A stretch of 64,000 nucleotides of DNA from Ginglymostoma cirratum (Eukaryota). Position 1 is the stretch's first letter; the number at the start of each line of letters is the position of its first letter. The notes under the pieces were generated by a model. It was not told the origin of the DNA. It was given only the letters and a program-made list of their open reading frames with translations, and did not search any database. Where the stretch lies: NCBI GenBank assembly GCA_024137785.1, contig JAHRHZ010000248.1, forward strand, positions 29,568,093 through 29,632,092, read 5' to 3'. Shown piece after piece: positions 6,086 through 48,232 of this stretch. The translations under genes were made by a program, and so were the position numbers.

Positions 6086-6180
6086 GATAACAAGCATGGG
6101 GCTGGATGAACACAGCAGGTCAAGCAGCATCATAGGAACAGGAAAACTTGACGTTTCGGGCCTAAACCCTTCATCAGAAA
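6086..6180 (-). mobile_element. ~95-bp Penelope pLTR mini-insertion with intact hammerhead core (6147-6180)
   Basis: Reverse complement TTTCTGATGAAGGGTTTAGGCCCGAAACGTCAAG...TTGTTATC; TSD TCACAGGTATATCTTA at 6070-6085 and 6200-6215. Confidence 0.88.
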
Positions 6181-7031
6181 TCTTCACAGGTATATACCTT
6201 CACAGGTATATCTTAAACTATATTTTAAGTAGACTCAATATTGAGTAGACACTCAATATTTCTGGATCCGGTTCAAAGTGCTCTTAGCTTCCTAGGGTTT
6301 TACTCCTGGAGAGATTCCTCCCTTCAGCTGAAAGTTGGACTGTAAGAAATTGGAGCAGGAGTAGACCATTAAACCCATTGATTCAACTAGATCATTGATA
6401 ACCTTCTACCTCAACACCATTTTCACATGCTATCCGCATATTTTTTGATGTCTTTAATTTCTAAAAGCTAGAATATGGAAAAGATAGATGAAACTTCAAG
6501 TCCTGTTTAAATCTTCATTAATTTGTCTTTTCAATCTAAGCGTTAGCTTTCCTGCATAGTGAATCTGAGAGACATTTGGTCGTTATCTGCTCTCGCTCTC
6601 CTGGATTCTCCTGGAAGTAGAAACCCTCCCCATTCAAAGCGCATCTTCATGATAATGTGAATCACATTGGCTTTAATCCAGGTAGAAATATTACTTTGCA
6701 ATTATTACAATCATAGTGAAAATGGACTGCCAATAATAATCTTTCATCAATTGACATTAATACTTCAGACTTTCATGACCTCAGACTTTCATGAGCCAAA
6801 AATAGGCTTTTAAAAAGGACACGCTGACCTAAAATGGCTACTATGATCACCTGACAAGCCTAGGCAACCCACAGGAAATGCGCAAAGCCAACACTGGAAT
6901 TATCATTTTTAATCAACAGGCAGTGAAACGCAGTAAGGTGTCAAGAAAGTTGAACATCTTGTATTAATGATAATTGCATGATGACTTTGCATATTAAGAA
7001 ACGAAAGATTACCTAGAACAACAACAACAAT

Positions 7032-7166
7032 AAAAACCAAAAGAACTGCAGATGCTGTAAATCTGAAACAAAAATAAAGTTGCTGGAAAAGGTCAGCAGG
7101 TCTGGCAGCATCTGTGAAGGAAACAGAGTTAATGTTTGAGGTCCGGTGACCCTTCCTCAGAACTGA
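7032..7166 (-). mobile_element. Penelope-type pLTR mini-element (family B), degenerate hammerhead
   Basis: Reverse complement AGTTCTGAGGAAGGGTCACCGGACCTCAAACATTAACT...CAGCATCTGCAGTTCTTTTGGTTT; homologous to 8284-8425. Confidence 0.78.
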
Positions 7167-7340
7167 TTGCCTACAACTATCTGACTTAAAATTAAACAAC
7201 ACAGAATCCACAAAGGTACAATACATCAACATCAGCCTTTGAGAAAAAAAGAGAGCAAAAGTAACATGACGTGATAATAACAATAATACCTACAGCTCTT
7301 CTGTACCTCTCTCTTTTCCTCTCTCAATCTCTGAAACCAT

Positions 7341-7530
7341 GATGTGGAGGTGCCGGTGTTAGACTGGGCTGGACAAGGTCAAAAATTGCATGACACCAGG
7401 TTACAGTCCAACAGGTTTATGTGAAGACATATGCTTTCGGGGTCTTGCTCCTTCTTCGGGTGTCAGTCTGGAAGTTTGTGTCTTCAAATAAACCTGTTGG
7501 ACTATAGCGTGGTGTCGTGTGATTTTTAAT
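7341..7530. mobile_element. Hairpin-shaped pLTR-type mini-element (family D), degenerate hammerhead on minus strand
   Basis: Inverted arms ACACCAGGTTACAGTCCAACAGGTTTATGTGAAGACA / TGTCTTCAAATAAACCTGTTGGACTATAGCGTGGTGT; minus strand 7428-7462 CCGAAGA-A-GGAGCAAGACCCC-GAAAGCATA. Confidence 0.6.
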
Positions 7531-8108: not shown

Positions 8109-8616
8109 GGGGTGGCATGGTGGCTCAGTGATTAGCACTGCTGGCCCACATCTCCAGGGACCCAGGTTTGATTCCACCATTGGGCAACTGTCCGTGTGGT
8201 GTGTGCACATTCTCCCTGTGTCTGCATGAGTTTCCTTTGGGTCATCCGGTTTCCTCCCACAGTCCAAAGAAGAGCAGGTTAGGTTCTGAGGAAGGGTCAC
8301 CACACCTGAAACGTTAACTCTGATTTTTTTCTTCACAGATGCTGCCAGACCTGCTGAGCTTTTCCAGCAACTTCTGTTTTCGTTCCTGATTTACAGCATC
8401 CGCAGTTCTTTCAGTTTTCATTTATGCAGGTTAGGTGGACTGGCCAGACTAAATTGCCCATAGTATCCAGGCATGTGCAGGCTAAGTGGATTAGCCATGG
8501 AAAATGCATGATTACAGGGATTGGGTCAGGAGGTGGGGTGCTATTTGAAGGGTCAGTGTGAACTCGATGGGCTGAATAACCTGCTTCTGCTTTGTAGGGA
8601 TTCTGTGATGATTCTA
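8109..8616 (+). mobile_element. HE1/V-SINE interrupted by a pLTR mini-element
   Basis: A/B boxes at 8110-8176, central domain, tail GGGATTCTGTGATGATTCTA; homologous to 2607-2933. Confidence 0.85.
8284..8425 (+). mobile_element. Family B pLTR mini-element with hammerhead core, nested in SINE
   Basis: GTT-CTGAGGA-A-GGGTCACCACACCT-GAA-ACGT-T-AAC at 8283-8318; TSD GCAGGTTAGGT at 8274-8284 and 8426-8436. Confidence 0.85.
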
Positions 8617-11165: not shown

Positions 11166-12290
11166 CTCCATCCAAGCAGCCTTTGTCAGGTAAGATGGCT
11201 CTTGTTGCCGTCCCTGAGGATTAGAATGTCCCCATATTCACCCACATCCTGCAGGAGCAACTCTATGGGTCAGTCGCTAAATTTTAAGACTTCTCTGTCA
11301 TCTTCTGGATTAGCTGGGGGCAGGCTGCAAGGTCTGCCAATGGTGCTGCAGCTTCAAAGAGTGAAATGTTTGCTGTACAGGTACCTTTCAAATATGGCTC
11401 CTGAACGTTGGAGCCAGGAAGCTACTCATTGGGAGTTGGGGGTGTAAGCAAAACTTTCTGCCCAACCACCAGTAAAATTTGACTTTTAACCTGTGAGATT
11501 TTTAAAGAACATAATTGCTAAGAAAACACAACTCACCCCCAAGCAGAGCAACCTCTTGCTTTTCCAATGAAGCACAGGTTCAAAAGAGAATATTGCACCC
11601 ATTGCCTCTGTATCTACTTTGTCAGAACCCTTCATAACCTTAAAGACCTATAGTAGGTCAGCCTTATTTTTTCAAGGGAAATGAGATTCACCCTGTCAAT
11701 CCTTCTCTGATTTGTTAATGCACAAATTTGTGCAATCATCCTCATACATCTCCTATACTGTTGCTGTGAGATGAATGTTCCTCACCCCTGATTAATGGTT
11801 CAGTTAAAGAATGAGGTCAAGGAATATTAAACAATTGGCTACGTTATTAACAATATTAATACTTTAGGCTATACTCATTTTTAGCACAGACTGGTACATC
11901 ACATGGCAAGAGATTGAAGGAAATTTTCCAAATCAAATATAATTTAATGATTTTAAAAAATGAAGTTGAACTTAGGCTGTTTACTCTCTTCAGTTTGACT
12001 TATACTGTCAGTTATTTGGTTCTTAACACAGGATTAAGTTCAACAAGGCTGTTCTCCTGGTGAGGAATGTCATTCAAGCAGAGCATGATCACTAAACACT
12101 TTGGGTGGATTCTGAGATCTGTGAGGTTCCACACCAGGGAATGGAGTCCAACTCAATATACTGTCCAGTCAGTTCCTGTTGAAATGAAATTTTATTGATA
12201 CATTAATTAGAAAAAACAAAACTTTCACAAACTCTGGTCAATTAACAAGTCCATTGGGTTATAAATTTAATAGCTATCAACAACATTTTA

Positions 12291-12426
12291 AAAAGCGAAG
12301 GAACTGCGAATGCTGTAAATCAGGAACAAAAACAGAAGTTGCTGGAAAAGTTCAGCAGGTCTGACAGCATCTGTGGATAAAAATCAGAGTTAATGTTTTG
12401 GGTCCAGTGATCCTTCCTCAGAACTT
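12291..12426 (-). mobile_element. Family B pLTR mini-element, degenerate hammerhead
   Basis: Reverse complement AGTTCTGAGGAAGGATCACTGGACCCAAAACATTAACT. Confidence 0.78.
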
Positions 12427-12579
12427 ATGCCGTTTACTCTCTTCAGTTTGACTCATACTGGCATAGGATTAAGTTCCCAATGCTGTTCTCCTGGTGAGGA
12501 ATATCATTCAAGAACATCGTGATCACAGATACCTCACTGAACACTTTGGGTGGATTCTGAGATCTGTGAGGTTCCAATC

Positions 12580-13122
12580 TTTCTTCTTGTCCACTAACTG
12601 TCACTGTCACTCCTGGTGTTTGACCAAGTATTTGCTAAAACTCATCTCCACAGCTATATCATATTCCTTAGTGACCACCTCCGGCTCAGACTCACCCCAT
12701 GTGGATTCCAACCAAAGTTTCATCCTTCATGTTTTGAATCCTCCCAGGATCACAGATATCTCCGTGATGTTCAACGTTCCATGGACAGCTGCTCTCGTCA
12801 CATCCTGAGATCCACACTCAGTGCCAAATGGCGTCACATGCACACTCTCGACCTTTCTCTCCAACAGCATCGCAACACACTGGCTCAGGGTTGCACCAGT
12901 CCACAGTTCCACTTCATCCTTCGGCTCAGTCGTCATGCTAACGAGAAACTTTTTGTTTTCCTTTCAGCCATTAAAGCCTACAAGATGCAACAACTCAAAC
13001 GTATCCATGGCCCTCTGGAACCTTCCTCTCCTATCCTTCCATCTGACTCCATTCCCTCTCCCAACCCCATCTCCAGTTGGGTATTCAACATCCCTCCTAA
13101 CCTTCCGCTCTCCGATGCTGAA
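12580..13122 (+). mobile_element. Penelope-like element ORF N-terminal fragment
   Basis: ORF 12616: FDQVFAKTHLHSYIIFLSDHLRLRLTPCGFQ...VFNIPPNLPLSDAE resembles the region preceding RT in fish PLE ORFs. Confidence 0.6.
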
Positions 13123-15911
13123 AAAAAATTAACAACATTTTGTTTGACTCTAGTCTTTTCTGTTAATGCAACAATGTTACTTGTAGATAATTTTTTATCC
13201 CCTCCTTTTTTTTTGCTATGTTGAATAAAGGAAACTTTCTTATAAGCTCCAATACTTCATTTAAAGGATGAAGTGAAAATCCTTATCTTTCAGACGTTAA
13301 CAGCATATTTATTTACAGCATGACCTATTTTTATTTCTGATTTCAAGAATTCACACTCGTTCTTTCAAAGCTTTCTCAGAACGAATTTCACTAGTTTATG
13401 CATGAGCAATTGGATGGAGTGGGGGGAGGGGTGGGAGGAATGAAGTAAATAGCTATACTAGTCCCATCCCACTGAGGCAGATCTTCTGTCAGCTGATGGT
13501 GGAGATTCTAAAATACGAAGATGATCTCACATGCAAAAAACACTACAGCCTAATCATTCCAGTTCTCCCAGATGAGAGACAAAACCCAGCACTGGGAACC
13601 TTTTCAAAAAAAAAAGTCCACATCACATTTGATTAGAAAGTGACACAAAGGTCCTGTCGGCTGGCATTAGACAGTTTTGGAGATACCCTTAGCAAAATGC
13701 AACAGAAGCCCTCATATCTCACTTCCAGAAAGGACAGATTACAGTCTTCCATTATCATCACAGTGCTTGCAAGTTTAATAAAACAACAGATTTTTTTAAA
13801 AAGGCTGACTAAAAAGTATCATAAATTTCCAGACAGGAAACGTTCTTTAATGTGAAAGAGAACCCAACACAATTTTATGTACACACTTCATTGCAGGCAG
13901 TCTTCTGTTATAATATGAGGTGTCAAAACAATTCACTTAACTTTAGGCACAAGGTTATTGGGAAAGGCTGTATACCTGGGATTTACACAGCAACATTTAT
14001 TCATGTTTAAACCATCACAAATACCAAGCCTTTATTTTAGTATATTTTGGAGTTATTTCACAACCTATTTAATGAATTACCTTCCTGCTCACTATTGGAA
14101 GTCAGTGATTGATACTGGTCAGTTGGTCACATGACAAAAATTGATCAGAGCAGACTGCAATTTAGAGAAAGCTCTCTAGACAGTCAGTTGCTAGGCAACT
14201 GTAGCCTTTGGTCAGCAGTGGTCAGTTAGTGTGTGCAATAGCCTTTGTCCCAAAGTGGGCAGTTGGTCTCTGACCTTTAATCTATAAATATATGCATGCA
14301 ACATATATTTAGATATATGTATTTACGTGCAGAGAAAAGTTAAATGCTTAAGGCGCCACATTTGTTTTCTCGTCTTTTACCAATATTCCATAATAACTGC
14401 TTAACCTTTTAAGCAAAGAATTTTCAGCTCTTCTCAGAAGACAAAATGGATTTACCCTTTCAAAATAGCATGAGCACCTTCAACTATAACAAAATGAGAA
14501 AATATTATTGACTTTGGGATATAAAGATTATTCTTCAGGTTGGTGGACTGCATGAAATCTATATTGAACAATAAATGTTGGTAGCAAGATATAGGACAGT
14601 AACTGAACAAAGGGATTCATAAGACATGAAAATGGAACTTTGTGAATTTCTTGACATCATCAGGTCAATCCTTGGAATCGTTCTTTTAAAATGCACATTA
14701 CCAACAACTTTTAGAGAAAAGAAAGCAAATTGTGTAAACCTTAAATAAAACAGAAAATTCTAGAAATAAACAGATTGGTAGGGATCTGGTGTACAAAACA
14801 TATTACAAGAAAAATATAGATAAGGAAAGCCATGCAACTAATTGCTACTCATCTTTTTCAAAAAAATTACCCCACCCCCACAACTTCCATCAAAATGTCT
14901 AATTGTCTTTTATATGACTCCAGGTTACTTTCCCAGGTGACGCCTTTCATCAGAATTGATTTACTATTTCTACTTGGTTAGAAGTGATTTGGTCGCATTG
15001 CTATTTGTGTTACTGATCCTGTTAAATGAAGGTACTTAAGATAAATGAAGCTCCAAATGACGTAATGAAAGAATAATGAAGATAAGGTTGGCACTGAAGG
15101 AACAGACATGTCATATTGTTAAAATAGTAATTGTAATTTTTTTTATACAACAGAAAAATACCGTGTATTGAGTAGATGAGCAAATGCAATACACCATTGT
15201 TGAATTTGAAATTTATGCCATTTACATGAATTTGTTTTGCAACTGTAAATAACATACTGTTTAATTTCCTCTGTTTGTAGAGAGGAATTTTATTAACTAT
15301 ATCAGCTAGGAGGTTTAATAGCAGAGAAATTAGCAAAGGCAATGAATTATTTGGCAGATTCCAAAAGCAAATCTACAACCTAACTGTTTAAATTGTTTGA
15401 TTAGAAGTAACAGCACTTATGTGATGCTGACTGCTTTTCCTCTGTATTCCCTGAAACATTTAATCAACAAAAGTCTGTCAATCAGAGCTTTATAATTTCA
15501 ATTATCCTAATGTCCATAGCATTTTAGGACGTGATTTTCGAATTTGTACTAATCTTTGAGTAAAGAATTGCTTCTTGAATTCATTCCTAAATGATCTAGG
15601 TCTAAATTTAAGATGTTTTCTTCCACCACCACCTCCAAGCCTCCTCCCTGACCAGAATTAAATAGTTCCTCTGTATCTACCTGATTAAATCCCTTTATCT
15701 CCCTCAATCTTCTAAACTCATGGGAATAGAAGGCAAAATGTGCGCAGTCTGGGCTCATAATTTAACCCTTTTAACTCCTGCTGCCATTCCAGTGAATCTG
15801 CACTTTTACTTCAATCCATGCTCAGTTCACCTTTCGTGATGTTTGATGCCTAAAATTGAATGCAGTGCTCCAACTACAGTTTGGCCATGGCTCTTTACAA
15901 GGATTTTAACA

Positions 15912-16262
15912 GTTTCAAAATCTCCCCACCCCGGCCTCATCCTATGACCAACCCTCCCTCTCATCCCCGCCTCCTTGGCATGATATAACCTGTCCATTTT
16001 CTCTCCCACCTATCCACTCCTCCCACTTCACTGACCAATCCCCACTACTCCCTACCTATCACCATCCCACCTACCTTCCCCAGCCCCAGCCCTCCTCTCT
16101 CTATTTATTTCTGAGTTCCCTTCCCCTCCCCCATTTCTGAAGATGGGTCCCGAACTGAAGCGTCAACTTTCCTGCTCCTCTGATGCAGCCTGGCCTGCTG
16201 TGTTCCTCCAGCTCCACACTGTGCTATGTCTGACTACAGCACTGGCAGTTCTTACCTCTCTG
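15912..16262 (+). mobile_element. Penelope pLTR fragment (family C) inside an older minus-strand CR1 remnant (~15540-16640)
   Basis: C-rich pLTR body, then TTTCTGAAGATGGGTCCCGAACTGAAGCGTCAAC (degenerate hammerhead) and CCAGCTCCACACTGTG tail. Confidence 0.75.
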
Positions 16263-18649: not shown

Positions 18650-20267
18650 TGACTCAGCTAAAAACATTTAAAGAAAAAAAGAAAAAGCAGGCATATGTAA
18701 GGTTTACAAAACTGAAACCAGAGAAAGCCTTCAGGAATACAAAGGAAGCAGGAAAAAAGTTTAACAAGGAACTTGGGGGGCTAAAACATGCCATAAAATG
18801 TCCTTGGCAAGTAAGATTAATGTGAATCCCGAGGCAATTTATACAAAATTAGGAGCAACAGGGTAGCTAGGGAAAGGGTAGGTCCACTCAAGGACAAAGG
18901 ATGGAATTTATGCTGGAACCAGAGAAAATGTGTGTGGTCCTTAATGAGTATTTTGCATTGGCATTCACCAAGGAGAAGGACATGGATGACTAGGGAGCAG
19001 TATGTTGATATTCTAGGGCATGTTACCATTAAGAAGGAGGAAGTGTTGGGTGTCTTCGAAAACATTAAGGTAGACAAGTCCTCAGGCCTGATGGGATCTA
19101 ACCCAGGATACTAAGGGAGGCAAGGAAGGAGATTGCTGAGGCCTTGACAGAGATCATTGTGCGCTCTTTAGCCATAGGTGAGGTTTCAAAAGCCTGGAGA
19201 ATAGCCAATTTCTTCTTTTGTTTAAAAAGGACAATTGGGATAACTCAGGAAATTATAGACTGGTGAGCCTTACATCATTAGTAGGGAAATTATTAGAGAA
19301 GATTCTTGGGGACATGATTTACTCACATTTGGAAAAGAATGGACTTATTAGGGATAGTCAATATAGCTTAGTGCAGGAGAGGTCTTGTATCACAAGTTTG
19401 TTTTTTGAGGAAGTAAGGAAAATGATTGAGAATGGGGCAGTCAATATTGTCTACATGGACTTTCCTAAAGCATTTGACAAGGTCCCTCGTGGTATGCTGG
19501 TCCAGAAGATTAAGAAAAGATCCATGAGGGTCTAGGCCCAAAACGTCAAGCTTTCCTGCTCCTATGATGCTGCTTGGCCTGCTGTGTTCATCCAGCTCCA
19601 CACCTTGTTATCTAAGAAAAGATCCATGGTGAGTTGATAAGTTGAATACAAAATTGGCTTGCCCATAGAAGACAGAGCGTAGTTGTGGAGCTGCAATTTT
19701 TTGACCGGAGGTCTGTGACCAGTGATATTCCACAAGGATCAGTGCTGGGACCTCTGTTGTTTGTAATATATAAAAATGATTTGAATGAAATGTAGATGAT
19801 CTGATTAGTAAGTTTGCAGGTGACATAAAAATTAGTGGAGTTGTGGATAGTGAGGAAGGTTATCGAAGGACACAGAAGGATCTAGCTCAGCTGGAAAGTT
19901 GCATGGCAAAATGGTAGATGCAGGTTAATCTGTACAAGTGTGAGGTGATGCATTTTTGGAAATCAAATGCAATAGGAAAGTATACAGTAAATGGTAGGAC
20001 CCTGAGGAGCATTGATATACAGAGGGATCTTGTAGTGCAACTCCATAGTGCTCTGAAAGTGGCAGCACAATTAGAAAAAGTGTTAAAGAAGGCATATAGT
20101 ATGCTTGTCCTCATTGAATATAAAAGTTTGCAAGTCATCTTGTAGCTTTATAAGATTTTAGTTAGGCCACATTCGGAGTATTGTATTCAGTTCTGGTCAC
20201 CACACTATAGGAAGGATGTGGAATCTTTGGAAAGGGTGCAAAAGAGATTTACCAGGATGATAACAAG
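18650..20267 (+). mobile_element. Degraded CR1 LINE RT fragment
   Basis: NYRLVSLTSLVGKLLE, VYMDFPKAFDKVP, KCEVMHF and LERVQKRFTRM motifs across frameshifted ORFs. Confidence 0.9.
19527..19612 (+). mobile_element. 86-bp family A pLTR mini-insertion inside CR1
   Basis: AGGGTCTAGGCCCAAAACGTCAAG...CCTTGTTATC; TSD TAAGAAAAGATCCATG at 19511-19526 and 19613-19628. Confidence 0.9.
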
Positions 20268-25500: not shown

Positions 25501-25787
25501 CCATTTAGAACAGAGTTGAGGAAAAACTTCTTCACCCAGAGAGTGGTGGATATATGGAATGCTCTGCCCCAGAAGGCAGTGGAGGCCAAGTCTCTGGATA
25601 CTTTCAAGAAAGAGATGGATAGAGCTCTTATAGATAATGGAATCAAGGGTTATGGGGATAAGGCAGGAACAGGATACTGATTGTGGATGATCAGCCATGA
25701 TCATAATGAATGGTGGTGCTGGCTCGAAGGGCCGAATAGCCTACTCCTGCATCTATTGTTTATTGTCTATTGTCTATTGTCTATTGT
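22560..25787 (+). mobile_element. Young CR1 LINE with near-complete ORF2 (APE endonuclease + RT), one frameshift at ~23327; ORF1 essentially absent
   Basis: 22751-23374: YMNARSI, ITETWL, GGGVAL, YRPP, MGDFN (APE); 23347-25680: SDHN, QHGF, YLDFQKAFDKVP, QGSVLGP, KFADD; 3' UTR ends in (TCTATTG)n at 25752-25787. Confidence 0.96.
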
Positions 25788-26198: not shown

Positions 26199-26459
26199 TT
26201 AATGAAATGATGAAACATTTCCAGCACTGCTGTTAGTAGGTGGTTGAGACGACACTGATTGTTCAAACTGACTGTCTCCAGTACTCTTTACTCAGAACAC
26301 TTGTCTTAGGTGACAAAGACTATGGCCCAGATTTTAATGCCTCCAAATTTTTCAGAATGCAGTTGGGTGGGATTTAAAACCGATGGATGAAATCCTATTC
26401 AGGAATCACCGTATCCATTCCTGAAGCCTCCAAAAAGTAGTGGCACAAATAGATTACCC

Positions 26460-28033
26460 GCATCGGCCCAAGCTATGCCTGCCTCTTTGTAGGTTATGTG
26501 GAGCAATCCCTCTTCCGTACCTACACTGGCCCTAAACCTCACCTCTTCCTCCGTTACATTGATGACTGCATCGGCGCCGCCTCATGCTCCCACGAGGAGC
26601 TCGAACAGTTCATCCACTTCACCAACACCTTCCCCCCCAACCTGAAGTTCACCTGGACCATCTCCAACACTTCTCTCTCCTTCCTGGACCTCTCTGTCTC
26701 CATCTCGGGTAACCACCTAGAAACCGACGTCCATTTCAAGCCCACTGACTCCCACAGCTACCTGGAATACACCTCCTCCCACCCACCTTCCTGCAAAAAT
26801 GCCATCCCCTATTCCCAATTCCTTCGCCTCCACCGCATCTGCTCCCAGGATGAGACATTCCACTCCCTTACATCTCAGATGTCCTCATTCTTCAAGGACC
26901 GCAACTTCCCCCCCACAGTGGTTGAGAACGCCCTCGACCGTGTCTCCCGCATTTCCCGTAACTCAGCCCTCACACCCCGTCCCCGCAATAATAACCAAAA
27001 TAACCCCCTCATCCTCACGTACCACCCCACCAACCTCCGGATCCAACGCATCATCCTCCGACACTTCCGCCATCTGCAGTCAGACCCCACCACCAAAGAC
27101 ATCTTTCCCTCCCCACCCTTATCTGCCTTCCGGAGGGACCACTCCCTCCGCGACTCCCTTGTCCGCTCCACAGTCCCCTCCAGCCCCACCACACCCGGCA
27201 CTTTTCCCTGCAACCGCAGGAAGTGCTACACCTGCCCCACACCTCCTCCCTCACCCCAATCCCAGACACCAAGAAGACTTTCCACATCAAGCAGATGTTC
27301 ACCTGCACATCTGCCAATGTGGTATACTGCATCCGTTGTACCTGTTGTGGCTTCCTCTGCATCGGGGAAACCAAGCGGAGGCTTGGGGACCGCTTTGCAG
27401 AACACCTGCACTCAGTTCGCAACAAACAACTGCACCTCCCAGTCGCAAACCATTTCAACTCCCCCTCCCATTCCTCAGACGACATGTCCATCCTGGGCCT
27501 CCTGCAATGCCACAGTGATGCCACCCGAAGGCTACAGGAACAGCAAATCATATTCAGCCTGGGAACCCTGCAGCCCAATGGTATCAATGTGGATTTCACA
27601 AGCTTCAAAATCTCCCCTCCCACAACCGCATCCCAAAACCAGCCCAGCTCATCTCCACCTCCCTAACCTATTTTTCCTCTCACCTATCCCCTCCTCCCAC
27701 CTCAAGCCACACCCCCATCTCCTATCTACTAACATCATCCCACCCCTTTGACCTGTCCGTCCTCCCTGGACTGACCTATCTCCTCCCTACGCCCCCCACC
27801 TACACTCACCTTTACTGGCTCCATCCCCGCCTCTTCGACTTGTCTGCCTCCTCTCCACCTATCCTCTCCTCTATCCATCTTCTATCCGCCTCCCCCTCTC
27901 TCCCTATTTATTTCAGAACCCTCTTCCCCTCTCCCATTTCTGGTGAAGGGTCTAGGCCCGAAACATCAAGCTTTCCTGCTCCTATGATGCTGCTTGGCCT
28001 GCTGTGTTCATCCAGCCCCACAACTTGTTATCT
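26460..28033 (+). mobile_element. 5'-truncated Penelope-like element: RT C-half, GIY-YIG, pLTR with mutated hammerhead
   Basis: GPSYACLFVGY, RYIDD, VVYCIRC..CIGETKRRLGDRFAEH, PVANHFN; one frameshift near 27240; hammerhead 27937-27970 reads CTGGTGA..GAAACATC. Confidence 0.95.
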
Positions 28034-28364
28034 CTCATTTCTAACCCAGTCACCTCCGTAGGCATCTCCTATAGTCATGTCATTTTCATGGAGTCATTTC
28101 AGCTTCTCCTCTCTCCTGGGTCTTGGCCATTTACATGAGTTGTGAACTATGATCTGTATTCATGGGCCTTTTGAAAGATAAAGTCAAGTAGCTTTGTTGA
28201 TGTTCCTTATGATTTTCCCATGTCAATGTAGGTCGCCCACCCATCCCTAATAGCCTCTCAGATCTTTAATGACATCTCATGCTCCCCATTTTCAGCTCTT
28301 CAAATAGCTCCATGTATCGTCCATGTGAACCCATGGCATTTTCCTGTCAATTCCCCTACTATAT

Positions 28365-31739: not shown

Positions 31740-32775
31740 TAATGCAGAGCTGGTCCGGCAGCATGTGGGGAGAGAAACCAGAGTTACTATTCCGAGTCCA
31801 GTGAACATTCTTCAGAACTGAATGCAGCTAGGAAAAGGGTGATATAAATGCTGATGTTTGAGTGTTGTGGAGAGGGCTAGCAGGCGTGTGGAGATGGAGA
31901 TCAGAGAGAGAAGAAAAGAGATTGTTAATATTAAACACAGAGAAGAAGAAAAGCTCAAAAGATGACATTGGAAACTATGAGTAGTTGAAAATGGGTGGAC
32001 TGTGCAGAAAGCAACTCAATTTTTGACAATATCTGGGACTGTGAGAGTAGGTAATAGACATGGAAGGAGATAATCATGCTCTGAAATTGTTAAGCTCCAT
32101 GTAGAGTCCTGAAGGCTGTAAGCTATCTAAAAGGAAGATGAGGTGTTGTTCTTTCAGATTGTGTTAAGTTTCACTGGAACATTACAGCTGACCTGAGACA
32201 ATTGTTGGCATGGAAGCATGATGTATTGGAGTGGCAGGCAGTAGGAAGCTCAGGGGCACATTTACCCACAGAACATCTGTGATCTGCAAATTGGTCACCC
32301 AATCTGCATTTCACCTCCCAATTGTAGAGAGATCACATTGTGAGCAGCAAATACAGTAGACCATATTGGCTGAAGTGCAGGTAAATCATTCCTTCTTCTG
32401 GAAGCTGTGTCTGGGGCCTTGGATGGTGAGGAAGGAGGAGGAGGCTTCTAGGTGGAGCAGTGTTTTAGAGACTTCAGGATTCAACATTGAATTTAACAAA
32501 AAAATGGAAAGAGCTATGGATTCTGGAAATCGGAAGCAAAAACAAAAATTGCTGAAAAATCTCAGCAGGTCTGGCAGCATCTGTGGAGAGAAATCAGAGT
32601 TAATGTTTCGTGTCCAGTCGCCCTTCTTCAGAACAATGTTTCAAATCCAGCGACCCTTCTTCAGAACAAGATTAAGCTCTGAAGAAAGGTCACTGGACCT
32701 GAAACATTAACTTTGATTTCTTTCCACAGATGCTGCCAAACTTGCTGAGATTTTCCAGAAATTTCTGTTTTTGAT
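31740..32775. mobile_element. Degenerate Penelope GIY-YIG fragment (minus) plus several family B pLTR pieces, the last two inverted
   Basis: 32060-32440 parallels 14-360; pLTR pieces at ~31745-31820(-), 32520-32667(-) and 32677-32775(+), the last with CTGAAGA-A-AGGTCACTGGACCT-GAAACATTAACT. Confidence 0.75.
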
Positions 32776-37139: not shown

Positions 37140-38510
37140 TACGCATGGTAGACTGGTTAGTGAGGTTAGATCACATGGGATCCAGAGGAAGCTAGCCAAT
37201 TGGATACAAAATTGGCTCGAAGGTAGGAGATAGGGGATGGTAGACCGGAGGCCTGTGACTAATGGTGTACTACAAGGATCAGTGCTGGGTTCACTGCTTT
37301 TCATCATATATCAACATGATTTGGATGTGGATATAGGACATATGGTTAGTAAATTTGCAGATGACAGCAAGTGTAGTGAAGATGATTTTCTCAGAGTACA
37401 ATTGAACCTTGATCAGATGGGCCAATGGGCTGAGGAGTGGCAGATAGTGTTTAACTTAGATAAATGTGAGGTGTTGCATTTTGGTAAGGCAAACCAGGGC
37501 AGGACTTATGCAGTAAGTGGTTGAGCCCTGGAGGATGTTGCCAAACAAAGAGACCCAGGAATGCAGGTGTGTAGTTCCTTTAAAATAGCGGGTGGCACAG
37601 TGGCACAGTGGTTAGCACTGCTGCCTCACAGCGCCAGGGACCCGGGTTCAATTCCACTCTCGAGCGACTGTCTCTGTGGAGTTTGCATTTGCACATTCTC
37701 CCCATATCTGCATGGGTTTCCTCTCATAGTCCAAAGATGTGTAGGCTAGGTGGGTTATAGGGGATGAGTTTGGGTGGGTACTCCGAGGGTTGGTGTGGAC
37801 TTGTTGGACCAAAGGGCTTGTTTCCACACTTTAGGTCTTCTATGATCTATGAAGTTACAAGCAGAGACGGTGGTGAAGAAGGCATTGGGAACGCTTGCCT
37901 TTGTTGGTCATAACATTAAGTATAGGAATTGGGATGTCATGTTGCAGCAGTTCAGGACATTGGTTAAGGCCACTTTTGAAATGACTTTATACATTTCTGG
38001 TCATCCTTCTATAGGAAGGATGTTGTTAAACTTGAGAGGGTGCAGAAAAAGATTTACAAGAATGTTTCCAGGACTGGAGGGTTAGAGCTATAGGGAGAGG
38101 CTGAATAGGTTCAGGCTATTTTTTCCTAGACCATCAGAGACTGAGGGTTGACCTCATACAGGTTTATAATTTCATGAGGGGCATGGATAGGGTGAATAGC
38201 CAAGGTCTTTTTCCTAGTATGGGCGAGTCCAATTCTATAGGACATAGATTTAAGGTGAGGGGGAAAGATTTAGAATGAATCTTTTTCATGAAGAGGGTGG
38301 TGCGTGTCTGGAATGAGCTGCCAGAGGAAGTGGTGGAGGCTGGTACAATTTCAACATTTAAAAGACATCTGAATGGGTATATGATTAGGAAGGGTTTGGA
38401 AGGATATGGGCCAAATGCTGGCAAATGGAACTAGCTCAGATAGGGATGCCTGGTCAGCATGGATGAATTGGATTGAAGGATCTGTTTCTGTACTGCACGA
38501 CTCTATAACA
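37140..38510 (+). mobile_element. CR1 LINE 3' portion in ST8SIA3 intron 1 with nested HE1/V-SINE (~37588-37850)
   Basis: GVLQGSVLG, SKFADD, KCEVLHFG; SINE head GGGTGGCACAGTGGCACAGTGGTTAGCACT..GGTTCAATTCC interrupts it. Confidence 0.9.
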
Positions 38511-38659
38511 GAAAGCCCTTCATAGAAAGAAATTTCAATTGTAAAGCACATTATACAATCCTAGGACATCCTACAATGTTGACAGTACTATACTTCTGTA
38601 ATGCAGTAGATGTCCTGAGGGCATAAAAACTGGGTTTGAAAGTCAGTATTTTAATGTGG

Positions 38660-40449
38660 CCAAAGGTCTGCATCCTGAAAAGAGTACACCAAGAAAAAAT
38701 GGTCCAGAAATGATTGTAACTAAATAAGTTTCAGAATTAGAGGTTAGCAAATCTGTTACATCTGTTAGGCAAAATGATCAACTCTGACTTGGCCACTGCA
38801 AACCCACAATTTTATGGTTAGATGTTGGCAGACAATGAAAGGCTTTACATGAAGAAGCACCTAGAAAGCAACATGTGAATAAGAAACAGTCAGCCTGGAT
38901 TTAAAAGGGGTGATCCCAGCTGATAAATCTCCAGGACCCATCTGATTAAATTGCAAATTAAGGAGGAAGTGGAACTCTGGAAATTATTGTTTACTTAAAC
39001 TTTCAAAAACCAATAATCAATATAAAGATACTGCATGTAACATTGCAAATAAAACTGCCAGATATGAGAATCCTGAGTAATTCTGAGAACAGGATAAAAA
39101 GAAATTGAATAAATGTGAATCAGAAATTACTTATTAAAGAATGAATGGCAGACTATACAATGGCTCTGAAGGAGGAGGGTAAGGGTCAATGATTTGACAA
39201 TGTAGAAAAGCAGTTTAAGTTAACACTTCAAAATACTCAGCAGGGCTGTGAAATCCATATCTGCTAAAAATATATCAACTATATATGCAAGTGGAAAGTA
39301 CAATTTGGCTTGGCATCTGATGACATGGGTATGAACAAAACTCAGAAGATTGATTAGAAGTATCAAGGAAATAAACTGAAAGGTGGTCATAAAATAATGT
39401 AGCACTGAAAGAGGCTATCTATTCCATTAAGTTCATAAAAATAAAAAGAGATGCAGGCCACACGTAAAGAAAAAAAAGTGGAAAATTCACTGAGGTTGAA
39501 AATTTTGCAAAATAATCTGGGTGACATGACATAGATTTAACTTAGTGCATTGATTCCAAAGGTTTGCGTCATGAAAAGAGCACACCAGGAAAAAGAAGTC
39601 CAGAAATGATTATAACTAATTAAGTTTCAGAATTGGAGATTAGCAAATCTATTACATCTATTAGGCAAAATGATCAACTCTGACTTGGCCACTGCAAACC
39701 CACAATCTTATGGTTAGATGTTGGCAGATAATGAAAGGCATTACATGAAGAAGCACCGAGAAAGTAACACGTGAATAAGAAACATTCAGCCTGCATTTGG
39801 AAGGGGTGATCCTAGCTGATAAATCTCCAGGACCCATCTGGTTAAATTGCAAATTAAGGAGGAAATAGAACTCTGGAAATTATTGTTTACTTAAACTTTC
39901 AAAAACCAATAAACCGTATAAAGATACTGCATGTAACATTGCAAATAACGCTGCTAGATATGAGAATCACAAGTAATTCTTAGAACAGGGTAAAAAAATG
40001 TCTGAATAAATATGGATCGGAAATTACTCATCGGAGAATGAATGGCAGACTGTATAATGGTTCTGAGGGAGGAGGGTAAGGGTCAATGATTTGACAATGT
40101 AGGAAAGCAATTTAAGTTAACACTTCAGAATACTTAGCAGAGCTGTGAAATCCATGTCTGCTAAAAATATATAAACCGTATATGCAAGTGGAAGGTACAA
40201 TTTGGCTTGGCATCTGATGACATGGATTTGAACAAAAATCAGAAGATTGATTAGAAGTATCAAGGAAATAAACTGAAAGGTAGTCATAAAATCTTACAGC
40301 ACTGGAAGAGGCTATTTATCCCATTGAGTTCACAAAAATAAAAAGATGTGGGCCACATATAAAATTTTAAAAAGTGTAAAATTCACTGAGTTTGAAAATA
40401 TTGCAAAATAATCTGGGTGACATGACATAGATTTAACTTCGTACATTGA
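38660..40449 (+). repeat. Tandem duplication of a ~895-bp unit in ST8SIA3 intron 1
   Basis: Copies 38660-39553 and 39556-40449 are colinear from CCAAAGGT.TGC.TC.TGAAAAGAG to GTGACATGACATAGATTTAACTT.GT.CATTGA, with scattered substitutions. Confidence 0.95.
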
Positions 40450-41267: not shown

Positions 41268-41805
41268 GCAAGTCACCCTGAAAGCTGTGAAGTTCCAAAA
41301 GGGGCAAGAACGGAAATGATGATAATTCGTAATTCTTTGCTTTCACTGTTTAACTCTCTTTTTGACTTCTTGACCCTTTCATGCTACCTGATCCTCTCTC
41401 CAGCATCCGCCCTCGCCGCCTGACACCCACACACGTGCTCTCCCTCTTTCAAATTAAACCAGAAACCTGGTACAGTGCAGTCTGCATTATGTAGAACAAA
41501 AGTGGTATCACTGTTAGAGAGAGGTATTAAAAATAGCAGGTGAAGAGTGCCAAAGGGATGTTTTACTGTAATATCGGTAATGAGCGCATTTTAAAGTTGC
41601 AAATTCACAAAGGGAATCTTTTTTATAATTAAGATACGTTTTCCCTTCCCACCGGCTCTTTTTGATTCGATTTTTATCCACTACATTTTGAACTTACTGA
41701 GGCTTTTTTTTAAATGCACTTATTTAAAGTCTGTGTTCTGAATTCACATCTATTACCATGAATGAACTGAACTAACATGTTCTCTTTGTGCGAATTGTGT
41801 TTTAG

Positions 41806-42363
41806 GAAGGAGATCAGTCGCTATGTCGACATTTATAAAAATTTCACCTTGCTTAAGAAAAACGTGCGAGTAGGACAGTTGCTGCACTACGATTACTCTA
41901 ACCACAAATACGTTTTCTCAGTCAGCAATAGTTTTCGATCATTGCTCCCCGACGTGACCCCTATATTAAAGATGCATTACAACACATGTGCGGTGGTTGG
42001 GAACAGTGGGATTCTAATCGGGAGTCATTGCGGAGCTGATATCGACAAAACAGATTTCGTGTTCCGCTGCAATTTCGCCCCAACTGAATCTTTTGAGAGA
42101 GATGTTGGCAAAAAGACGAATCTCACGACATTCAACCCAAGCATCCTCGAAAAGTACTACAACAATCTCTTAACAATCCAGGATCGAAACAAGTTTTTCC
42201 TGAATCTTAAAAAGCTGGATGGAGCCATTCTTTGGATTCCTGCCTTTTTCTTCCACACTTCCGCTCCGGTGACAAGAACGTTAGTAGATTTTTTTATAGA
42301 ATATAGAGCACAATTGAAGGTCCAATTGGCTTGGCCTGGGAACATAATGCAGCATGTCAATAA
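41806..42363 (+). CDS. ST8SIA3: ST8SIA3 coding exon 3 (558 nt; sialylmotif L)
   Basis: Acceptor TTTTAG|G; contains CAVVGNSGILIGSHCGADIDKTDFVFRCNFAP (sialylmotif L); donor AA|GTGAGT. Confidence 0.97.
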
Positions 42364-42489
42364 GTGAGTATCTATGACCCAAAGACATTTTTACCTGAAA
42401 TTTCTTTTTAAAAAAAATTCACAAGAAGGTTCATTCTATAATTCCATCCCCAGTTGCCTTTTTTATGATCAAAATAAGTGAATGTTGTG

Positions 42490-42835: not shown

Positions 42836-43020
42836 GTTTAACTTGTCCCCTTTCTTCGTTGAGTCACCCACTGCGTTGCTGCTCTTTGGTTCAGTCTCTG
42901 TGCTTCCTTGGATCATATTGATTGTTTTTCTCTTTATTCTCAAGATTTCGAACTTCAGCTATACCCTCCCCTCCCCCACAAGCATCACAGATAGATCAAA
43001 AGGCCTAAGCAAAATGGCCA

Positions 43021-43642
43021 GAGATAAAAGGTACTGCAGATGCTGGAGAATCCGAGATAACAAGCATGGGGCTGGATGAACACAGCAGGTCAAGCAGCAT
43101 CATAGGAGCAGGAAAACTTGACGTTTCGGGCCTAAACCCTTNNNNNNNNNNNNNNNNNNNNNNNNNNNNNNNNNNNNNNNNNNNNNNNNNNNNNNNNNNN
43201 NNNNNNNNNNNNNNNNNNNNNNNNNNNNNNNNNNNNNNNNNNNNNNNNNNNNNNNNNNNNNNNNNNNNNNNNNNNNNNNNNNNNNNNNNNNNNNNNNNNN
43301 NNNNNNNNNNNNNNNNNNNNNNNNNNNNNNNNNNNNNNNNNNNNNNNNNNNNNNNNNNNNNNNNNNNNNNNNNNNNNNNNNNNNNNNNNNNNNNNNNNNN
43401 NNNNNNNNNNNNNNNNNNNNNNNNNNNNNNNNNNNNNNNNNNNNNNNNNNNNNNNNNNNNNNNNNNNNNNNNNNNNNNNNNNNNNNNNNNNNNNNNNNNN
43501 NNNNNNNNNNNNNNNNNNNNNNNNNNNNNNNNNNNNNNNNNGCCTAAACCCTTCATCAGAAAGGGTTTAGGCCCGAAACGTCAAGTTTTCCTGCTCCTAT
43601 GATGCTGCTTGACCTGCTGTGTTCATCCAGCCCCATGCTTAT
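43021..43642. mobile_element. Family A pLTR hairpin insertion spanning the assembly gap, 15-bp TSD
   Basis: Left arm 43061-43141 is the reverse complement of right arm 43561-43640; TSD TAAGCAAAATGGCCA at 43006-43020 and 43643-43657. Confidence 0.88.
43142..43541. other. Assembly gap (400 N)
   Basis: Run of N. Confidence 1.
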
Positions 43643-43664
43643 TAAGCAAAATGGCCATCTCTCT

Positions 43665-43848
43665 TTGTAAGAACTGCCGACGTTGGAGTCAGAGATAACA
43701 CAGTGTGGAGCTGGAGGAACACAGCTGGCCAGACAGCATCAGAGGACATCTGAAGAAGGGTCCCGACCCGAAACGCCAACTTGCCTGCTCCTCTGATGCT
43801 GCCTGGCTTGCTGAGTTCTTCCAGCTCCACACTGTGTTACCTCTGACA
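43665..43848. mobile_element. Family C pLTR hairpin mini-element
   Basis: GTCAGAGATAACACAGTGTGGAGCTGGA..AGCATCAGAGGA inverted against TCCTCTGATGCT..TCCAGCTCCACACTGTGTTACCTCTGAC; the loop holds CTGAAGA-A-GGGTCCCGACCC-GAAACGCC-AAC (43750-43780). Confidence 0.82.
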
Positions 43849-44955
43849 ATCACTCCTTGCCCACTGCACCGTTTGCACCGTTAAGTGAAATTTATAACGT
43901 AGTAAATAATAAACAAAAATCTAAAAGTAGTCACAAGTGTTCGCATAAAAATGCATTTAACCTGCTCAAATTGATCCCACATTTTCCAATGCAGGTACAC
44001 CGTCACACCACTTCATTGATTAGCACAATCTATACAGAATGGTTCTGAGCATGACTCCTGGGTCATGCTCATTCCTTTTCTTGTTCAGCCTCGTTCCCTA
44101 GTCTTTGTCTTGGACTATTCTCTTCAACCTCTTGCTGTGTCCAAATACCCCGGCATCTTATGAAGTCATGCTATATTACTCCAGTGGACTGGCAGACCAT
44201 CCTGCAATTCAAGCTCTGATACGCGGGCAAATCCGCTTTGCCTCCCGGCCATAAACCAAGGTACTGCCCCACCCCACAGTCGAGCTAAGTTGCCCATCTT
44301 CTCACACTTTCTGTTCTGAATATCAGATTCATTAAACTGTTGAGAAATTTATCTCAGAATAGTGAGGTAGTCAAATCATTAACTGGTTTTATACATTCGT
44401 TTGTAATCAGTTAATTTTACTTTTTTTGCAAGAATATATATTTACCTAAGACCTCCTACTCCCTTCTCTTTAATCATGTGATCCCAGTCCCAATCCCGGG
44501 CTCAGACCTTGGTTTCCACTCCTTCACCATATCTTCATCTGCCTTATGCACTTCAAGGCGGTACACACCCGCAGAATTTTGTCAAAGATTTGGAACTCTG
44601 ACTTACGACAAGAAATGGTCTGATTGGCAGATGTTAAGGGGAAAAAAAAGACAGAATGAGAGAAAGCCAGACAGAAAGGAATACCGAGAATGTAAGAATG
44701 CAGAAGATGGGAGACAGGGCGGGAAAACTTAGATAAAGGGAGAAGAGTGGAAAAAATGTCACGGAGATGCAAGAATAGTAAATGCCAGATAGGCATACAG
44801 CAATAGAGAAGGGCTAACATTGAATGTCCGAGAAATAAAAATAGAACAGGAGGAAGACGGTAAAGTTTACAAAAAAAAGTGAAGCATTTTTTCATGAAAA
44901 TGAAATCCACGGATGATTGATATTTTGTCATTTTTGTTACTCTATTGTTAAACAG

Positions 44956-45241
44956 ATATTGGAAAACCAAACATCTATCCCCAAAGCGTCTAAGTACAGG
45001 CATCTTGATGTATACACTAGCGTCGGCCATCTGCGAAGAGATCCACTTGTACGGATTTTGGCCTTTCGCATGGGATCCTAACACTGGAAAGGAATTGCCA
45101 TATCATTACTACGACAAAAAGGGGACAAAATTCACAACCAAATGGCAAGAGTCCCATCAACTACCAGCAGAATTCAAGCTGTTGTTCAAGCTACATAATG
45201 ACGGCTTGACTAAACTGACTCTCTCACGTTGTGCCTCTTGA
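44956..45241 (+). CDS. ST8SIA3: ST8SIA3 coding exon 4 (286 nt incl. stop; sialylmotifs S, III, VS)
   Basis: Acceptor AAACAG|A; YWKTKHLSPKRLSTGILMYTLASAICEEIHLYGFWPF (motif S), HYYD (motif III), HQLPAEF (motif VS), TGA at 45239-45241. Four exons total 1146 nt = 381 aa + stop. Confidence 0.97.
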
Positions 45242-48124
45242 TAGGATGCTTTTGAAGTGCCAAGTTATTCCTTGTTCTCATTCTTTGTTCCGTTTTTGAT
45301 TCCAAATGCATTTTGTACCCAATGCGTTGAGATCTCTGTAGGCGACGCTTCGTGATACATTTCTCAGAGTAATTCCAACAGCTGTGGCACTGACGTGTTC
45401 ATGAGTTTTCGTGTACTGTGGTAGTAAAGCATTTATTTTATATTGGGAAGTAGCCGCAAGCATTTGCAGTAGAATTTGGGGATGGGAGTGGTTCCCGTTA
45501 AATGGGAGATTGAATATATTGAACCATTGGAACCTGATTATAGAAGTCAGTTTAGCAGTTACCAGTGGCGACAGAACGTGGGCTGGCGATATTGGGCCCT
45601 GCCAATATAGCGACGGGCAGTGTAGGTCTCAGAATTCTCTAAGCCTGGTATTTTGAAAATGGCACCCAATCAAATTAGACATGGATAATAAATGCTGGCC
45701 TTGCTACGGATGCCCACGTCCCACCCTTAAATAATTCTATGTTGCTGCCACTCAGATCGTTTCACAAGATGCATTGAGGAAAAGTATTAAAGTCAGGAAA
45801 ATGTGTCCCAATGATTTCGATCGAGCACCTTTGATATCTGACCTATTAACCTATTTCAATGGTGCCAACATCATAAAACCACAGTCTGCATGGTCGGTGC
45901 GCTCAGCACGGGAGTTGCTACAGTGAATTTGCGCGAGATTGTTTTTTGTTGTTGAAGTTTTAGGTCAATTTGTTAACATTTTAACATTAAACAGCGAGTG
46001 AGCTCCAAGTATCCTGTCTAATTTAAAAGACCGAGTTGCCCGTAGAATAAAGTGCAAACCTGCAATAATTTAGATCATCAATGAAAACGGTCCAAGCAGT
46101 AGAGGCTCGACAAAACACTTCTAATAGTGTTGGGAGAGTTTAGCCGAAAGACACGGTCTAGTAAAAAGTACATGAATTGTTTATTTAAGCATATCCTCAA
46201 ATGGAATGCATTTGGTATCTTTCAAGTCCTGTTTATATAGAATATCTTGTACGGTTGTCAAAGTGAACATGCGAGTCTTTTGCATGTACGTGGCACAAGC
46301 ATTTTTTAACCATCAAATTGGACGGTAACTGTACTACTTTTGTATTGATACTTAAAAATAGACTTGTTTTATTTCTTTTACAGCTTGAGGAGAAAACTAA
46401 GTTTCGAAGTTATATTGAGTACGTTTTCTTTTGCCTGTTTAGTTGATCCAGGTCCCTGCTGCCGTGTAAGAGCTAGGGTTTTAATGAGAGACGGCCCTTG
46501 ACTCTTCACTCTTGTATTGCGAAATTGAAGAAGTTTATTGATTCTTGTCTGTAAATTTTTTTTCTCATGCCTGCTACTGTTCATCTACACTAAATTACTA
46601 ATGTGAGAATTTTGTTTCAGTGGCGTGAGCAGTTGTTGGTAACTATATAAAGACATTTGGAACAAAGCTGCGCATACTCATTAATGGGAACATCGCCTCG
46701 AAAACATTACAAAAACTTACTTGTTTACCAAAAGCAAAACTGTTATGTTTACAATCTCACTAACAATTCTATTTTGCTTAAAAGTTCCGATCATGCCATG
46801 TCAGTTTTCATGGCTTCGGGCTAACGCAGTCCCGTGAAGATAAACAGGTTAACATATTTGATTTAGACAGCAAAGTCACGGCATACTGATCGTCACGAAC
46901 CCACAAGGAGCTTATTCCGAAATAAAAATAACGTTCTTTAAGCTTATAAAGCATCATTCGTCACTCGAATGGAGCTGACCGAATCTGAGGGATGTTGTTG
47001 CAAAATTAGAGCCACTATTCACATCTTGGCTAAACGGAGACATTGTATCCATGTCGAAATGAAGGAGAGGAAACTCTGACTAGATAAATTTGTGTATACC
47101 CACAGACATTCCAAGGGAACGTTTTCATACATATTAGGAATTAGGACGTTTGGGGGTTAATTATTATCAAATAATTAAGATGCATGCAGTTAACGTTAAC
47201 ATAACTTTAGGCCATAAATTAATTGTACGAATCACGCTCCCTCTGCGCAGAAATCTAAATATATACACAACATCGAAGAAATTATTCAATTATGCAATTC
47301 CATTTCCCATATACGCACCCGATTTGTATTTGACCGCCTCTCCAAAGCTGGTTAATGTAGTTTTGGAAAATTAGACTCCTGGATATTATTTTATGTTTTT
47401 CGCACCACATTTCCACTTGCTGCTATTCTTACTGCGGAAGTCGACAGCAGAATGCTGACTATTGCTTTCCCTCAGTTTAATCTTTAGTTTACTGAGTCAA
47501 CCGCGGTTGTTTGATCAATTTTTAGAATCCATGTCTTTAAAAAAGAAGGTTTCCGCCAACAGCCACCCGCACCGGCTTTCAGAATGTGCGACCCTTCACA
47601 ATGCCCGAGCCGAGAGCAGCGTCTCCTTTTCTGTACTATTACAAATATTTGATCAACTCCTCAAAAATTCGTTCTTACAGTACGGAGAATAAGTCCCGTG
47701 GTACAATCTATGCAAAATAAACCGTATTAAATGACAATAGCAATGAAATGGAACTATTTATCAAGACTATAATATTTCCTCTACGCCATACATTTGCGTT
47801 AATTATGCTTAGAGTCACATATCAAATTTAAAGAGAATTTTGTAAGTGCTATTTGTACATTTGACCGGACTCAACAAGTCTACATTCTACGCTATTGTTT
47901 ATATCATTCTCATTACGATAGCCGAATCATTACTTTCCATGAAAATCCTTCTCGCACTATATGGGCTGACATTTTAGGAAATATCTCCCCAAAAAACTCA
48001 TCCATAAAGCCATTAAAAGTGTATTTTACTGAATGGTATCTGACACGTTTTAATAAAAAGTGTACAGAAGGCACGAACACGGACTCCCCGTTATTACCAC
48101 ACAACTACAGGCCAGCAAGGGTTT

Positions 48125-48232
48125 GTAATCAGAAATAAAACAGAAATTGCTGGAAAAGCTCAGCAGGTCTGGCAGTATCTGTGGAGAGAACGAGAGTTAA
48201 CGTTTCCGGGCGAGTGACCCTTCCTCGGAACA
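48125..48232 (-). mobile_element. Family B pLTR mini-element
   Basis: Reverse complement GTTCCGAGGAAGGGTCACTCGCCCGGAAACGTTAACT. Confidence 0.78.

Follow-up and report, generated by a model that had tools for sequence, protein, structure and literature searches.

Short dispersed copies that begin at the 5' edge of a minimal hammerhead ribozyme motif are present throughout the window, a 64,000 nt stretch of the Ginglymostoma cirratum genome (contig JAHRHZ010000248.1, positions 29,568,093–29,632,092). These copies, termed minis, represent the first ~98 or ~135 nt of a unit-length Penelope-like element (PLE). They are probably products of reverse transcription that starts near the 5' end of the element RNA and runs off at a putative transcription start, in the manner of a "strong-stop" product. 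The minis are a real and very abundant feature and provide a useful mechanistic clue, but they do not constitute a new mobile RNA class. An earlier interpretation made from the letters of the window only (the sequence-only reading) had listed seven minis and proposed two origins: stalling of the reverse transcriptase (RT) at the folded ribozyme, or a discrete retrozyme-like class mobilized by Penelope RT.

A fixed 5' boundary at the hammerhead edge

Positions are numbered from +1, the A that is 4 bases ahead of the C in CTGANGA. Copies were collected from 50 kb blocks at round coordinates of large contigs, a sample that is not strictly random. Six of the first 16 blocks were all N and were discarded, and eight of the remainder were lengthened to 100 kb. 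The total, including the window, is 938,499 non-N bases (0.94 Mb) with 234 copies, of which 32 are censored by N gaps or reference ends. The copies fall into three families, A, B and C. The density is 249 copies per Mb; for the genome of 4.36 Gb a rough extrapolation gives ~1 million copies, about one fifth of them (~200,000) solo minis.

A plot of 5' ends shows that the peak at the hammerhead 5' edge holds across the sample, and a smooth distribution is not seen. Expressed as end hazard (ends per nt among copies at risk), the peak stands at 0.074 ends/nt: 77 of 144 at-risk copies end at -4 to +6, within 10 nt of the edge. Downstream, from +56 to +7 in order, the hazards are 0.007, 0.006 and 0.016 per nt; upstream, going outward, they are 0.004, 0.001, 0.002 and 0.001 per nt. 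Compared with the highest neighboring hazard, the peak has a Poisson P of ~2e-26. It is present in every family (at-risk copies ending at -4 to +6: A, 19/64; B, 40/55; C, 18/25), and it persists when the window copies are left out (69/132) and in copies that have no inverted partner (47/92). The peak is not a calling artefact; in simulated smooth truncations called with different references, none of 209 copies reaching past -10 is miscalled into the peak, and this is so for each of the three families. Of 47 solo copies in the peak, 14 have a target-site duplication (TSD) score of at least 9 (0 of 200 in swapped-flank controls), which confirms their ends as genuine insertion boundaries.

The hammerhead motif consists of a 3-bp helix I, a 5-bp helix II and a palindromic stub that replaces helix III, and the first base of helix I coincides with the boundary. 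A minimal-hammerhead descriptor has 35 matches in the 0.94 Mb sample compared with 0, 0 and 0 in three shuffles; no hammerhead model was matched in an Rfam scan. Two weak Rfam miRNA matches fall on inverted pairs and are hairpin artefacts. Cleavage is predicted after +32 in family A and after +34 in family B. The 10-nt interval that spans the predicted cut has 13 ends, compared with 77 at the 5' edge, and neither the cleavage site nor the 3' foot of the helices (+25 to +38) shows an end peak. The minis are thus not copies of the 3' cleavage product, as had been pointed out for the seven listed sites, all of which do start upstream of the predicted cut.

The parent element

A search with the ORF (open reading frame) fragment at 12575 shows that the family B mini sequence is the 5' untranslated region (UTR) before the ORF, and in tandem loci it is repeated after the endonuclease end. 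The same sequence is therefore found both ahead of the ORF and behind it, which is the definition of a pseudo-long terminal repeat (pLTR). The ATG of family B is ~170 nt downstream of the ribozyme. Among the 24 best N-terminal ORF matches besides the window, seven start at -2 to +3, eight extend into an upstream repeat and nine are scored further in. One of the latter nine (locus L147) has a family C repeat joined ahead of a family B ORF start and is possibly a cross-family chimera or a template switch. A comparison with the ORF side of locus L141 found the family in contigs of sequencing runs that are presumably from RNA.

The ORF pieces contain a YIDD motif and a weak RVT_1 match (E 0.0023, below the curated cut-off), and for the C-terminal part the top ESM Atlas matches, at 0.96, are GIY-YIG clusters (Pfam share 13–55%). 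Pfam at 1e-3 and a PDB sequence search gave nothing useful for these pieces. As read from the ORF pieces, an RT and, at the C terminus, a GIY-YIG domain are in a single ORF, as in endonuclease-positive (EN+) Penelope elements. CX4CxxC is present in the translation of 26453–27751. In excerpts of PMC8557442, a CX2-5CxxC linker before the GIY-YIG motif defines the Neptune/Nematis type; the amino acid motif found here points to this type, with the two not told apart. The proposal that the minis are mobilized by Penelope RT is supported.

The sequence-only reading had assigned a fixed 3' end to each family. The 3' ends are indeed defined, but there are two per family, ~35 nt apart: near +98 (55/104 copies) and near +133 (42/104) in family A, and near +100 (42/88) and near +137 (31/88) in family B. 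The two ends match the optional tail (30–40 bp) of Penelope-like elements. An inverted partner is present in 87 of the 234 copies, and 30 of 52 at-risk inverted copies have their joint at -4 to +6. Repeats of the first 7 nt and inversion joints are both found at +1. In addition, N gaps are often situated inside head-to-head Penelope pairs (window 43142–43560 and loci such as L256, L257, L268 and L271), so inverted insertions are likely under-counted in the assembly.

Promoter-like words at the boundary

Two words at canonical core promoter spacing accompany the boundary: one resembles a TATA box (-31/-29) and the other an initiator (+1). A TATWWA word is found at -28 to -34 in 43 of 46 promoter-bearing A/C copies and at -29 to -31 in 19 of 25 B copies, and no other such word occurs over 1,483 nt on the upstream side of a family A reference or over 450 nt for a family B reference. 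The word YYANWYY is at +1 in all seven references. We take these words to be the TATA and initiator consensus; their promoter function is putative and is suggested by sequence. The modal 5' end of family B is 1 nt further in than that of A and C, which agrees with the 2 nt shorter distance of its TATA-like word. The account of the boundary given in the sequence-only reading missed these words as well as the ORF-bearing copies that end at the same place. A sigma-70 promoter scan is irrelevant to a vertebrate and was set aside.

An extra cap-derived G at the 5' junction is described, in excerpts of PMC11702581, as a mark of full-length L1 insertions. Genome-wide, among non-C cases, a G precedes +1 in 1,264 of 2,498 family A junctions (51%) and 862 of 1,837 family B junctions (47%), compared with 26% in flanks, a comparison that is confounded by templated G. 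In solo copies the G is present in 14 of 36 (p=0.066), and in 3 of 15 control solo junctions. In the internal controls, with 143 and 182 matches, the signal is diluted by substitutions and by inversions, and the family B control has G in 33 of 100 among the matches listed (by eye). Because the controls are diluted, the genome-wide G excess is not counted as evidence.

Proposed run-off at the template end and alternative explanations

The proposed scheme has as its basis two observations: the mini sequence is the 5' UTR ahead of the ORF and recurs at the element 3' end, and 5' ends pile up at -4 to +6 in three families, often in ORF-bearing copies as well. The two 3' ends ~35 nt apart would represent internal RT start sites for which the RNA 3' end is not needed, as found in vitro for the Anolis element (PMC11167929). 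Reverse transcription would be primed at the nicked target and begin at either of these sites. Position +1 would be the RNA polymerase II (Pol II) start, specified by the TATA and initiator words and located 4 bases ahead of the hammerhead core; the boundary would therefore be the end of the template and not an obstacle. If +1 is the transcription start, the RNA 5' end is no more than ~98 and ~135 nt away from the two start sites, and RT must run off at +1 and give minis. Either the front part of a full-length RNA or RNA transcribed from any truncated copy with a retained promoter may serve as the template.

What follows at the template end would determine the type of insertion. Where RT stops and the short cDNA is joined, a solo mini would result, often trimmed by a few nt. 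A first cDNA that meets a second cDNA would produce a head-to-head pair, and slippage of RT back at the template end would produce the 7-nt head repeats. Transfer to the 3' repeat and on into the promoter would give long and tandem copies and would rebuild the promoter. The downstream shoulder together with the sharp upstream drop in hazard has the shape of a hard end with trimming, and a template end is likewise consistent with the one-sidedness of the shoulder, with the head repeats of 7 nt and with the joints of inversions at +1. The minis are predicted to be mostly dead on arrival because they are without the upstream TATA-like word. Ribozyme cleavage would not be needed for making them.

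Several observations weigh against run-off at a transcription start. The commonest end is +2/+3 and not +1, and ends are scattered from -4 to +6. The TATA-like word is missing in 6 of 25 B copies and in two B references, and in family A it also reads as an antisense poly(A) signal. A majority of the inspected junction G cases (27/42) are in inversions or head repeats, where the G can be templated. ORF-bearing copies that end at the boundary would be allowed by a stall as well. In Drosophila virilis Penelope, the promoter has no TATA box, and 46 nt separate the start from a downstream 75-bp intron that runs up to helix I; the coincidence of start and ribozyme edge is thus not universal, and splicing or other processing stays a rival, mainly for family B.

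One alternative is a stall of RT during synthesis across the 3' repeat of some longer RNA, either at the folded hammerhead (or a protein bound to it) or immediately beyond; the minis would then be ordinary 5' truncations that have a hot spot. The boundary is at the first base of helix I, some ORF-bearing copies end there too, and folding of the Anolis ribozyme is protein-assisted (PMC11167929), all of which would agree with a stall. RT, however, moves 3' to 5' on RNA, and a fold should halt it at the 3' foot of the helices, where no such peak is present at helix I or II. Instead the entire ribozyme is copied before the end: the minis hold the whole motif and stop just past it. Predicted folds leave the 60 nt upstream of +1 largely unpaired in families A and C. 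The fold is the same in all families, yet the ending fraction differs (30% in one versus 72–73% in the others), and the TATA/initiator spacing is left unexplained. Stalling, as first proposed, is weakly supported at best and is considered improbable as the origin of the minis.

The RNA 5' end near +1 might otherwise result from processing, at a 3' splice site or by a nuclease cut, or the GIY-YIG endonuclease might fix the boundary in the DNA itself. In family B an AG directly precedes the modal end (+3) and a branch-point-like word is located upstream, and the D. virilis intron that ends at the 5' end of helix I offers a precedent; but there is no AG at the boundary in families A and C, no shared upstream exon is seen, and the TSDs are 0–11 nt from +1. 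With regard to the endonuclease, +1 of family A opens with ATT, which the Anolis endonuclease cuts preferentially (PMC11167929), but family B is without ATT at that position. Processing or an endonuclease-set boundary is an unlikely explanation, and run-off at the template end is preferred.

A broader proposal is that Penelope replication is retrovirus-like, with target-primed reverse transcription, a strong-stop cDNA made over the hammerhead repeat, transfer to the 3' repeat, and copying of the promoter and ORF. This is a tentative idea that may well be wrong. If it is true, pseudo-LTRs and partial tandems would be built by strong-stop transfer, and solo minis would be integrated intermediates that record the capped 5' end.

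Relationship of minis to long copies

The possibility that the minis are a discrete class was assessed with trees of 94–95 columns, in which support is low at many forks. In the A/C tree (31 mini, 29 long), the mini label needs 16 changes; the mean after shuffling is 19.8, and 18 of 500 shuffles are as low. In the B tree (39 mini, 11 long and 14 ORF-bearing), the label needs 18 changes compared with a shuffled mean of 20.1. The starred branches force at least four label changes in the A/C tree and at least three in the B tree. Minis are present within every well-sampled subfamily, and two are identical in sequence to two long copies. The sequence-only reading had stated that interleaving of short and long copies, and a smooth spread of truncation points with no peak at the hammerhead, would speak against its proposals; the interleaving is found and the smooth spread is not.

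A self-propagating retrozyme- or SINE-like (short interspersed element) class would have its own master copies and circular RNA intermediates. The discrete ends, TSDs and very high copy number of the minis are of the type expected for such a class, the A/C tree has a mild clustering of minis (16 vs 19.8), a few short head-to-tail ribozyme-head arrays (35–44 nt period) are among the 97 genome-wide matches of family A, and some minis could be transcribed if they had an internal promoter like that of D. virilis. The spread of minis over subfamilies, with some rows identical to long copies, is contrary to this. In addition, there are no same-family head-to-tail neighbors among the 234 copies (two are mixed-family), and the unit starts before the cut site and is not cut-to-cut. 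Direct ribozyme-head repeats are rare genome-wide (97 in family A and 10 in family B, versus 20,074 and 5,958 exact cores) and are without a sharp junction at the cut. The interleaving of minis with long copies thus does not support a discrete retrozyme-like class, which appears highly improbable.

Among the 97 family A head-repeat matches, ~15 of ~85 separate events end at +32/+33 (by eye), and similar clusters of ends are found at +24, +35–39 and +44–49. None of the ten family B matches ends cleanly at the cut. In the window, 33 bp of the family B ribozyme head (+2 to +34) are directly repeated between the arms of an inverted pair (32602–32669), and the repeat stops exactly at the predicted cut. 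This repeat was considered as a jump onto the 5' cleavage product, which is not supported genome-wide. Three short family A ribozyme-head arrays (G000:C87:27750057-27750237, G000:C222:31293692-31293871 and G000:C283:75562189-75562343), with periods of 35 nt, 43–44 nt and ~99 nt, are the rare loci nearest to the tandem definition of retrozymes.

Comparison with known systems

Minus-strand strong-stop DNA of LTR (long terminal repeat) retroelements is a short, tRNA-primed first cDNA; it begins internally and reaches the 5' end of the RNA, and the sequence it covers recurs at the 3' end. The minis would work alike, but they are predicted to be target-primed at a GIY-YIG nick and integrated alone; no membership in that group is claimed.

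The elements share with EN+ Penelope-like elements of the Neptune/Nematis type, as described in excerpts of PMC8557442 and PMC3846280, a C-terminal GIY-YIG domain, the CX4CxxC linker and a minimal hammerhead in the repeat, as well as the optional ~35-nt tail, head-to-head inversions, partial tandems and TSDs of 8–16 bp. Solo pLTRs are reported for a rotifer element, with a putative TATA and initiator in the pLTR (PMC3846280, in part). The same two sources, in the excerpts that deal with these elements, describe variable 5' truncation and the origin of solo pLTRs via recombination or deletion; here, in contrast, the boundary is sharp and common to short and ORF-bearing copies, a pattern not found in these excerpts.

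Dispersed minimal hammerheads of metazoan genomes are already known as thousands of single motifs and opposite-strand pairs that are "probably related to truncated PLEs" (Cervera and de la Pena 2014, PMC4209133, in excerpts). The motif is the same as that found here. In those excerpts ends and TSDs are unmapped, whereas in the present sample the single motifs are a product with fixed 5' and 3' ends. In Poseidon of Anolis carolinensis, reverse transcription begins at two internal positions that correspond to the ends of the tail, each DNA strand is cut and then extended, and RNA with a dead ribozyme is inserted just as well (Frangieh et al. 2024, PMC11167929). Poseidon is similar to the elements analyzed here in that the hammerhead is at the pLTR–ORF junction, two RT start sites are ~110–150 nt downstream and the RNA template is uncleaved. 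It differs in belonging to another clade and in having its ATG within the ribozyme, and short run-off insertions are not discussed in the main text of that paper. Animal non-LTR retrozymes (PMC7761336, in excerpts; bioRxiv 10.64898/2026.07.22.740005) are likewise non-coding, with a type I hammerhead, kinship to PLE pLTRs and many dispersed monomers. They are defined, however, by tandem ribozyme-bearing units and circular RNA, whereas the minis are single or head-to-head and without lineages of their own.

Searches of the open-access literature, supplementary figures excluded, revealed neither a description of a sharp 5' boundary at the edge of the ribozyme nor a proposal that such copies originate by run-off. 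The regeneration of PLE promoters, the formation of tandems and inversions and the role of the hammerhead are stated to be open questions in passages of PMC2377424, PMC8557442 and PMC11167929. A fixed 5' boundary common to short and ORF-bearing copies offers a precise, testable candidate for the transcription start, and one mechanism is offered for solo motifs, inversions and tandems. The data indicate that the abundant single hammerhead motifs, at least in this genome, are by-products of autonomous elements and not retrozymes.

Copies in the window and their surroundings

All seven of the originally listed elements are present at about the coordinates given for them (Table 1). Two belong to family A (6086 and 19527) and the other five to family B. 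They had been described as solo insertions that begin near the CTGANGA core, several of them with clean TSDs. Five are solo; the copy at 32677 is an arm of a head-to-head pair and that at 12291 is part of a complex insertion. Six have 5' ends at -4 to +4, and the copy at 19527, which has no CTGANGA box, starts at +12. TSDs are clean in three of the seven (12 bp at 6086, 11 bp at 8284 and 16 bp at 19527) and not in the other four.

Table 1. Coordinates of Penelope-like copies and associated motifs in the window
Feature	Position	Strand
Inverted longer family A copies that retain the upstream promoter-like region; tail on one arm only	4393..5378	.
TATA-like word at -31 of long family A copy (presumed consensus, putative function)	5250..5255	+
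Initiator-like word; predicted +1 at 5281, the point from which mini-copies start	5279..5285	+
Minimal type I hammerhead motif, predicted cut after 5312 (descriptor scan; motif type PMC4209133)	5282..5315	+
Family A mini-copy, +1 to +98, solo, 12-bp TSD; groups with long family A copies in tree	6085..6181	-
Family B mini-copy with tail, -3 to +139, without clean TSD	7029..7167	-
Tailed family B mini-copy, +2 to +141; TSD of 11 bp; minimal hammerhead motif intact	8283..8424	+
Family B mini-copy with tail, 5' end at -4, part of complex insertion	12289..12429	-
N-terminal ORF fragment of family B element; directly downstream of mini sequence at other loci	12574..13120	+
Family C copy with upstream promoter-like region and tail	15901..16262	+
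Short family A copy without CTGANGA box, +12 to +98, 16-bp TSD	19527..19613	+
Long family A element, truncated at the 5' end, with C-terminal half of RT, CX4CxxC linker, GIY-YIG endonuclease, promoter-like region and hammerhead end	26453..28035	+
Head-to-head family B minis: 32500-32634 minus, 32678-32773 plus (plus arm 5' end +4)	32500..32773	.
Inverted pair of family A ends flanking N gap	43019..43635	.
Head-to-head short family C copies; plus arm from +4	43667..43847	.
Family B mini-copy, +2 to +108, mutated ribozyme core, without clean TSD	48127..48231	-

In the complex insertion, the 5' end of the mini at 12289–12429 adjoins a ~150-bp copy of neighboring host DNA (source ~11970–12130), which is followed by the family B ORF fragment. 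The ~150 bp of local host DNA is thus duplicated between the inverted mini and the ORF fragment (11970–12573), and this arrangement suggests a template switch onto nearby DNA during insertion.

The window contains many other PLE pieces and also pieces of a CR1-type LINE (long interspersed element). An open frame of 783 aa at 23329–25680 represents ORF2 of the CR1-type LINE and has an RT domain (Pfam RVT_1, E 1.5e-33); it is preceded by an endonuclease-like frame at 22727–23374, and the copy is apparently young. Host exons encode a glycosyltransferase family 29 sialyltransferase (41771–42367) and a CUT-domain (ONECUT-like) transcription factor (57509–58810). A direct duplication at 38660–40302 has a period of ~896 bp and 90% identity. 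A short repeat family is present at 8110–8207 and 37590–37687, and its sequence presumably resembles that of a tRNA-derived SINE.

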